DNA of 64,000 nucleotides, from the NCBI RefSeq assembly GCF_044647545.1, contig NZ_CP172818.1. One strand, 5' to 3'. The notes below the pieces were generated by a model that was given only the letters and a program-made list of their open reading frames with translations, did not search any database and was not told the DNA's origin. Each line of letters opens with the position of its first letter. The stretch's first letter is position 1. The translations under genes and the position numbers were made by a program. Positions 63,053 through 63,943 of this stretch are shown piece by piece. The stretch is from Escherichia coli (GTDB lineage Bacteria > Pseudomonadota > Gammaproteobacteria > Enterobacterales > Enterobacteriaceae).

Positions 63053-63214
63053 TTAGTGGCTTTGCGCGATAAGATCGTCTGGTGAAAGTCGGGTCACCAT
63101 CATAACTAACTCTCTGTCTAAACCTCTCTCCAGCATTTCCTGAGCAATGCGCAGGGCTTCTTCGCGTTTGCCCTGCATTGCGCCTTCTTCACGTAATCTG
63201 TCAGCAATGGTCAT
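63053..63214 (-). CDS. putative internally initiated Rpn tail small protein (RpnS-like) within rpnB
   Basis: In-frame ATG 63212..63214 preceded on the minus strand by AAGGAG (63221..63226) at 6-nt spacing; same architecture as in rpnE. Inference. Confidence 0.3.
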
Positions 63215-63943
63215 CAGTTTCTCCTTTTCTTGTGGTGCGCGTTCCGCTATCTCACCAATAAATGCACGGAAACGCTGGGCATCCCCCGTTTGTAATACAT
63301 AATTAAACAGGGCTTTTAGCTGTCTGTCATTAGTGTTCCCTGTAACTAGCAGCGAAACAATTTGGTCGACTAATCCCAACAGATCGCGCTGACGAATATG
63401 TTTCTGAATTAACTCCAACAGCGCCATTTTGCGATGTTGCATAATCTCGTCATCCGGCACCACGGTAATATCCACAAGCGGAAAAGCCGATGAATATATT
63501 TTGCGGGCTATAGCAGGCTCGGCAAATTCATCAAGCCAGCAGAGTGAATAAGGATAAGGACTTCTGCAACCATGATAAAATAGCATCGGGATCACCAATG
63601 GAAGCTCTTTATAGCCCGCATCAAGATGGTTTTGCATCGCTGCAATGGAATAGCGCATCATGCGAAAAGCCATTAATTCTTCCGGCTTACTTTGGTGCTC
63701 TATCACCACATAAATATAACCTGCTCCCTCCTGCGTTTTCACAGACCACAAGAGGTCGGAATAATATTGCCGCAGGTCTTCATCAATAAAACTGTTTGGT
63801 TCCAGTTTAAGCGTCGTTAAATCACACAGTTTGCGCAGCGGCGCGGGAAGATGAATATCAATAAAATCCCGCGCGGTGTCTGGATGGCGTAAAAAAGATT
63901 TAAATACCGCATCATGCGGCGTGGAAGTTGTCGATATTGTCAT
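63053..63943 (-). CDS. rpnB: Rpn (YhgA-like) recombination-promoting nuclease
   Basis: ORF 63053..63943 minus, 296 aa; paralogous to the product of 1..735 (shared GYIYxVIEHQS, FPLVDIT(I/V)[12 protein letters not shown](R/K)LMTIA(E/D)RLR(Q/E)EG). Confidence 0.85.

Follow-up and report, generated by a model that had tools for sequence, protein, structure and literature searches.

Several rpn genes of Escherichia coli have been described as toxin-antitoxin modules in which the antitoxin is translated from an in-frame start inside the gene of its own toxin. Retapamulin Ribo-seq (Ribo-RET) gave in-frame internal initiation peaks in rpnA-E (Meydan et al. 2019, 10.1101/520783). A later paper (Zhong et al. 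2023 PNAS, PMC10400941) describes the detection of all five Rpn small proteins, including RpnB-S, by chromosomal SPA tagging and immunoblot, and refers to dRNA-seq data according to which transcription also starts inside each of the rpn genes. The same paper contains experiments on rpnB. Plasmids in which its RBS and internal start were mutated (RpnB-L*) were more growth-inhibitory or toxic. When rpnB was overexpressed, the resulting SOS induction was lowered by RpnB-S in trans, not by RpnA-S. This effect was lost when a stop was introduced at D29 of RpnB-S. In rpnA, the combined changes K240R+E241D+M244L abolished the small protein (PMC10400941).

According to the published account, RpnA-S (PDB 7TH0) is a dimeric three-helix bundle. 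Together with RpnA-L it assembles into an L2S2 complex, and it prevents the cleavage of DNA in vitro. RpnA and RpnP2 are the proteins for which direct binding, stoichiometry and protection from phage are reported as demonstrated. The specificity of RpnS is said to depend on how many four-residue repeats helix 1 contains, an effect of repeat number shown for RpnC (PMC10400941). The type I-D CRISPR pair Cas10d/Cas11d and ArcB-C likewise involve a C-terminal fragment made from an in-frame internal start. Their products cooperate or act apart, whereas RpnB-S antagonises RpnB-L.

Here, we studied rpnB in a stretch of 64,000 nucleotides of an E. coli genome (contig NZ_CP172818.1), which we call the window. 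It is the same gene as K-12 RpnB-L/RpnB-S, in the same context (hisP-rpnB-yfcH-folX-yfcG) and with the same AAG GAG AAA CTG ATG; the differences are allelic only. In RpnB-S they amount to two residue changes relative to K-12, i.e., R17 for H17 and E29 for D29. RpnA-L/RpnA-S has the same AAG GAG at K240-E241 and the same Met244, and the RpnA codons K240, E241 and M244 are the homologues of AAG-GAG-...-ATG in rpnB. The two small proteins are not interchangeable (neither blocks the other's toxin in the published experiments), and helix 1 of RpnB-S is 4 residues longer than that of RpnA-S. Counted from the internal Met, residue 29 of the K-12 RpnB-S is a D. The published D29 numbering therefore fits Met244, and the published RpnB-S start corresponds to the ATG at 63214..63212 of the window, an identification that rests on the text of the paper and on its numbering. 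Our main reading is that AAGGAG-N6-ATG in rpnB is the RBS and start of the antitoxin RpnB-S, a gene within the toxin gene, and we give it a probability of about 95%.

The internal start and its reading frame

The original prediction placed an AAGGAG hexamer and an in-frame ATG, separated by 6 nt, inside rpnB, and all of its coordinates were right (Table 1). Direct reading of the minus strand gives ...GCA CCA CAA GAA AAG GAG AAA CTG ATG ACC ATT GCT GAC AGA... around the site. In the rpnB ORF, this ATG is in frame as codon 244, so that the sequence of RpnB-S is the C-terminal tail of RpnB-L. The computed product has 53 aa, a mass of 6111 Da (6.1 kDa) and a pI of 4.97. A C-terminal product of about 6 kDa had been predicted; the frame encodes one of this size, and RpnB-S was detected in the published immunoblot. 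A perfect AAGGAG stands 6 nt in front of the internal start, whereas the annotated rpnB start lacks a canonical SD: in the region before it (63944..63970, minus strand) the sole G-rich stretch, GAGGGG, is as far as 12 nt from the ATG.

Table 1. Features of the window discussed in the text.
Feature	Position in the window	Strand	Remarks
rpnB ORF (RpnB-L, 296 aa)	63053..63943	-	PD-(D/E)XK nuclease toxin; Transposase_31/YhgA-like N-terminal domain
Internal Shine-Dalgarno AAGGAG	63221..63226	-	codons K240 (AAG) and E241 (GAG) of RpnB-L
Spacer AAACTG, 6 nt	63220..63215	-	between AAGGAG and the internal ATG of rpnB
Internal ATG	63212..63214	-	Met244 of RpnB-L = Met1 of RpnB-S; 6 nt past the SD
rpnB-S, gene within gene	63053..63214, including stop codon	-	53 aa; very probably an acidic helical antitoxin
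Variable helix 1 segment, GAMQGK in the window allele	63164..63181, boundaries approximate	-	from the alignment of E. coli alleles
rpnE, 3' two thirds, cut by the window start	1..720	+	homologous internal start
rpnE internal SD and ATG	517..522 (SD); 529..531 (ATG)	+	AAG GAG AGA TTA ATG
ypaA / rpnE-Ss, free-standing duplicate of the rpnE small gene	736..933; ATG 748..750	+	61 aa plus stop

Both strands of the window contain eight AAGGAG-N4-9-ATG sites, to be compared with about 2.8 predicted from base composition. Six of the eight head ordinary ORFs of 61-429 aa, and the only ones lying deep within a longer ORF are those of rpnE and rpnB. From base frequencies, about 0.007 in-frame internal sites of this kind are expected by arithmetic in an ORF of 297 codons. 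The original prediction also held that rpnE has the same arrangement at the homologous KE(K/R)LM position, which is the case, and it took the conservation between the two paralogs as an argument for function. A functional site is supported by the codon comparison below and by the published data. The argument from two paralogs is weak alone, as codon choice is already narrowed by the conserved K-E: given the codon usage of these genes, Lys-Glu would read AAGGAG ~12% of the time (0.30 x 0.39).

This figure, together with the conservation of K-E-x-L-M at the protein level in RpnA, RpnB and RpnE, is what speaks for a first alternative, namely that AAGGAG is a by-product of a conserved Lys-Glu in the linker of RpnB-L, and that the Met is an ordinary residue from which nothing is translated separately. 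The data on codons, pairing and mRNA structure in the next two sections speak against it, and we regard it as almost certainly wrong.

Codon conservation among Rpn homologs

We assembled the set of homologs without regard to the SD, using a DNA pattern for the PDDEIMQH codons, 81 codons upstream of the site, and one genome per species. The scan yielded 70 Enterobacterales loci from Escherichia, Citrobacter, Klebsiella, Salmonella, Serratia, Pantoea, Erwinia, Rahnella and other genera. The Met was kept in all 67 complete homologs: 64 had the MT(I/L/M/V)A motif and three an MGTVAE variant, the latter likewise with AAG GAG. The other three loci were cut by the locus end or had a premature stop. 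One Rpn homolog, from Escherichia whittamii (locus L064, 7775..7798), has a stop 22 codons past PDDEIMQH; the C-terminal antitoxin region is therefore absent from it, and it is probably a pseudogene.

Sixty distinct sequence contexts were compared. The residue four codons before the Met (codon -4) varies among K, E, G and R, yet its codon was a G-rich purine codon in 60 out of 60 contexts: AAG in 29, GAG in 11, GGA in 11, GGG in 8 and AGG in one. We found no AAA, GAA, GGC or GGT at this codon in these contexts. All of the 29 Lys codons were AAG, against 30% AAG in the background of the same genes, and the 11 Glu codons were all GAG (background 39%). Similarly, Gly was encoded by GGA or GGG in 19 of 19 cases (background of both codons together 41%), and the single Arg by AGG (background 6%). 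At codon -3, GAG was used in 33 of the 46 Glu cases, compared with 39% in the background. The five rpn paralogs of K-12 follow the same pattern, with AAG (K) at codon -4 in rpnA, rpnB and rpnE, GGG (G) in rpnC and AGG (R) in rpnD, followed in each case by GAG, and with the SD six nt before the ATG.

As controls we took other columns of the alignment with a conserved K, E or G. Their codons were mixed, e.g., two Lys columns had 34 AAA and 8 AAG, and 32 AAA and 28 AAG. The Pro, Gln, His and Leu codons flanking the site used all of their synonyms. When each cluster of sequences was reduced to one representative, the probability that all of the codons would be G-rich had a log10 P of -14.7 at 80% nucleotide identity (31 clusters) and of -4.6 at 70% (9 clusters). 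At the latter level the fourfold sites were 35% identical, i.e., near saturation. Selection thus acts on the codons of the internal SD beyond the protein sequence. The original prediction had proposed this comparison, naming synonymous variation that destroys the SD in most orthologs as evidence against an internal RBS; among the 60 distinct homologs, the SD-forming codons were kept beyond amino-acid conservation and no such variation was found.

Pairing with the anti-SD, mRNA structure and conservation in E. coli

The mean energy of the anti-SD duplex at the internal Met was -7.95 kcal/mol in the set of homologs. Pairing was much weaker at the remaining conserved Met columns (-2.3 to +0.6 kcal/mol) and at 600 other in-frame ATGs (mean -1.53 kcal/mol), which argues against the hexamer being a by-product of the linker residues. 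Synonymous recodings of the same peptides had a mean of -4.26 kcal/mol. The p-values of the recoding test were weak in individual sequences (median 0.146, only 10% at ≤0.05), because each sequence offers few synonymous options. The signal in the SD codons is carried by the aggregate and by the matched column controls, not by single sequences.

Moreover, no other part of rpnB folds as weakly as the start region: 61 nt with the internal ATG at their centre have a folding energy of -1.9 kcal/mol, whereas the mean of rpnB is -11.8 kcal/mol (sd 3.5). This again is at odds with a by-product, as are the published detection of the RpnB-S protein and the published Ribo-RET peaks.

A second alternative accepts that the hexamer interacts with ribosomes and proposes that it mainly modulates the elongation of RpnB-L by making them pause, instead of promoting initiation. 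Whether SD-like sequences generally cause pausing in E. coli, as has been proposed, is contested. For rpnB we consider such a role to have a negligible probability: the hexamer lies in an unstructured region, the 6 nt between it and a universally conserved ATG are the canonical distance, and inhibitors specific of initiation trap ribosomes at the internal starts of rpn genes (10.1101/520783). Nothing specific in our data speaks for pausing.

The region was found in 4755 of the 5426 complete E. coli genomes, always with at least 95% identity over the 56 nt surrounding the site, and was identical in 3350 of them. In six E. coli alleles sampled across the identity classes, the differences fell outside AAGGAGAAACTGATG only.

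Alleles and the variable segment of helix 1

At least two forms of RpnB-S exist among E. coli alleles, one of 53 aa (with EEGAMQGK, as in the window) and one of 57 aa (EEGRNDGLILGK), as seen in the window and in loci L078, L079 and L081. The two differ by a 12-nt (4-aa) indel and by substitutions in helix 1, with the longer form carrying GRNDGLILGK. A length variation of four amino acids is described in PMC10400941, and the 4-aa difference seen here corresponds to it. The small products of the Rpn homologs ranged from 42 to 77 aa, and the numbers of repeats vary widely.

In a third alternative the small product starts at another codon of this frame. One candidate in the variable segment is Met13 of RpnB-S (63178..63176), preceded by GAAGAAGG; initiation could also take place further downstream. 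In the window allele, CGT GAA GAA GGC GCA ATG provides a weak AAGG four nt before this ATG. Yet Met13 is missing from the common 57-aa allele of E. coli, which has GRNDGLILGK in its place, and from most homologs. The published D29 numbering fits Met244 instead. Furthermore, the crystallised RpnA-S (49 aa) has exactly the length expected from the homologous Met of RpnA, and its alignment with RpnB-S begins at residue 1. A start at Met13 or beyond is thus very improbable, and we retain Met244 as the first residue of RpnB-S.

Membership of rpnB in the Rpn family

The DNA of rpnB in the window is 100% identical to that of E. coli FDAARGOS_497 and 96-98% identical to that of most other strains. RefSeq names the 100%-identical DNA rpnB, with hisP as neighbour on one side and yfcH-folX-yfcG on the other. 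RpnB-L matched the Pfam profile PF04754 (Transposase_31) over residues 8-209 with E=2.1e-91, and TIGR01784 with 189 bits (cutoff 52.1). The residues D11, D63, E82, Q84 and D165 are invariant columns of the Rpn alignment, including RpnB of the window. Mutations of these five residues, of which D165 is part of the PDDE motif, altered the activity of RpnA, and mutation of D63, E82 or Q84 inactivated it (Kingston 2017).

The internal SD start lies in frame 53 codons before the stop, within the range of 40-80 that we used as a criterion for the RpnL/RpnS arrangement. RpnB-S matched RpnA-S of PDB 7TH0 (49 aa) end to end, residues 1-52 on residues 1-48, with E=3.9e-5, and was 45% identical to the K-12 RpnA-S (BLASTP). 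In the 330 nt preceding the internal start on the minus strand, no sigma-70-like promoter reached the threshold of the scan, and the best relaxed match had 8 of 12 positions. All the features of the RpnL/RpnS family on which the sequence gave a clear answer are present in rpnB; an internal promoter, for which PMC10400941 cites a dRNA-seq transcription start, was not located by these scans.

The top PDB matches of RpnB-S were designer pentatricopeptide-repeat proteins (E down to 1.7e-30). We rejected them as homologs and regard the matches as an artefact, because they sum about ten weak matches of 'GKxEEALxIAxEMLExG' to the individual repeats (~10 bits each), none of which is significant alone. 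RpnB-S was below every Pfam threshold. The sub-threshold Pfam matches in the search with RpnB-S and YpaA were helical or HTH-like, namely Cas3-like_C_2 (E=0.01), RecX_HTH2 (E=0.015) and RepB_primase_C (E=7.7e-4), and the Cas3 C-terminal domain of PDB 4QQW and 6C66 was matched by RpnB-S (63056..63214, minus strand) over nearly its full length, also below threshold (E about 0.013). The matches of RpnB-S to Cas3 and RecX_HTH2 may be due to nothing more than a fold common among small helical or HTH-like proteins.

Some species have free-standing RpnS genes, which are covered by the profile PF14261 (DUF4351); neither RpnB-S nor YpaA matched this profile at E-values up to 10. RpnB matched none of the defence families of PADLOC-DB 2.0.0, a library of the same year as the paper on Rpn defence. 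The missing DUF4351 and PADLOC matches reflect the coverage of the libraries and do not count against membership.

Among 72,556 plasmid records, 4845 carried homologs in a tblastn search with RpnB, mostly at 50-55% identity, and 3053 of these plasmids were conjugative. Some of the plasmid homologs are annotated beside a DUF2913 protein. A search of viral contigs with the alignment of four paralogs gave a single locus, too few for the codon test.

rpnE and ypaA in the same window

The window also includes most of rpnE, and ypaA downstream of it. The internal start of rpnE (517..531) and the head of ypaA (736..750) share the 15-mer AAGGAGAGATTAATG, i.e., the architecture of SD and start is identical in rpnE-S and ypaA. 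RpnE-S (529..735, plus strand) has 68 aa in this strain and 56 aa in K-12; the additional 12 residues match the expansion of four-residue repeats described for the Rpn family. In the RefSeq annotation of K-12, ypaA is a pseudogene. Detection of the expressed YpaA protein is described by Zhong et al. (PMC10400941).

In contrast to rpnE, rpnB has no free-standing copy of the small gene downstream and is followed by the convergent gene yfcH instead. An inverted repeat, CTGGCGGATGTT...AACATCCGCCAG (62986..63035), lies between the two genes and extends into the 3' end of yfcH. Its plus-strand form was flagged as terminator-like, and the repeat may be a terminator shared by rpnB and yfcH.

Discussion

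The functional internal start of rpnB has already been published, between 2019 and 2023, and the present result is a rediscovery. Weaver et al. 2019 are reportedly also to be named for the first report of this start. The parts possibly not yet in print may be limited to one, the quantified constraint of dual coding.

Ribosomes initiate at Met244 on an accessible SD site and yield a helical RpnB-S of 53 aa. This protein is the cognate antitoxin and neutralises RpnB-L in a paralog-specific manner. The way in which it would do so can be drawn by analogy with RpnA, RpnC and RpnP2: RpnB-S would pair with the identical C-terminal helix of RpnB-L. RpnB-L and RpnB-S would then form an inactive hetero-oligomer, perhaps of the L2S2 type known for RpnA, in which the toxic cleavage of DNA is blocked. 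Specificity would be set by the length and the sequence of the first helix, in which the alleles differ by 4 residues. Some trigger might free the nuclease, which would damage DNA, and the module might in this way contribute to phage defence. For the chromosomal rpnB, we infer direct binding between L and S, their stoichiometry and the role in phage defence from RpnA, RpnC and RpnP2. It seems to us hardly in doubt that rpnB encodes a toxin and its antitoxin and belongs to a family with links to anti-phage defence.

The codon data suggest a stronger statement, which we make tentatively and consider rather unlikely to hold in full: the need for an SD would dictate which residues stand at positions 240-241 of RpnL. 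Those that occur there are K (AAG), E (GAG), G (GGA or GGG) and R (AGG), followed by E, D, N or K. The linker would tolerate only residues whose codons are G-rich and made of purines alone, since these bases also serve as the RBS of the antitoxin. If this were true, the linker of the toxin would be a read-out of the antitoxin RBS, and there would be a rule, applicable from sequence only, to find other in-frame antitoxin starts.

The case of rpnB shows that a genuine gene within a gene can be recovered by reading the DNA. It also provides a cheap criterion that does without expression data, namely G-rich synonymous codons at -4/-3 before a conserved internal Met, combined with a local minimum of mRNA structure, and this criterion of codons and structure is applicable to other candidate internal starts. 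An antitoxin translated inside the gene of its own toxin, in a family linked to phage defence, is notable biology, and for rpnB of E. coli it is established.
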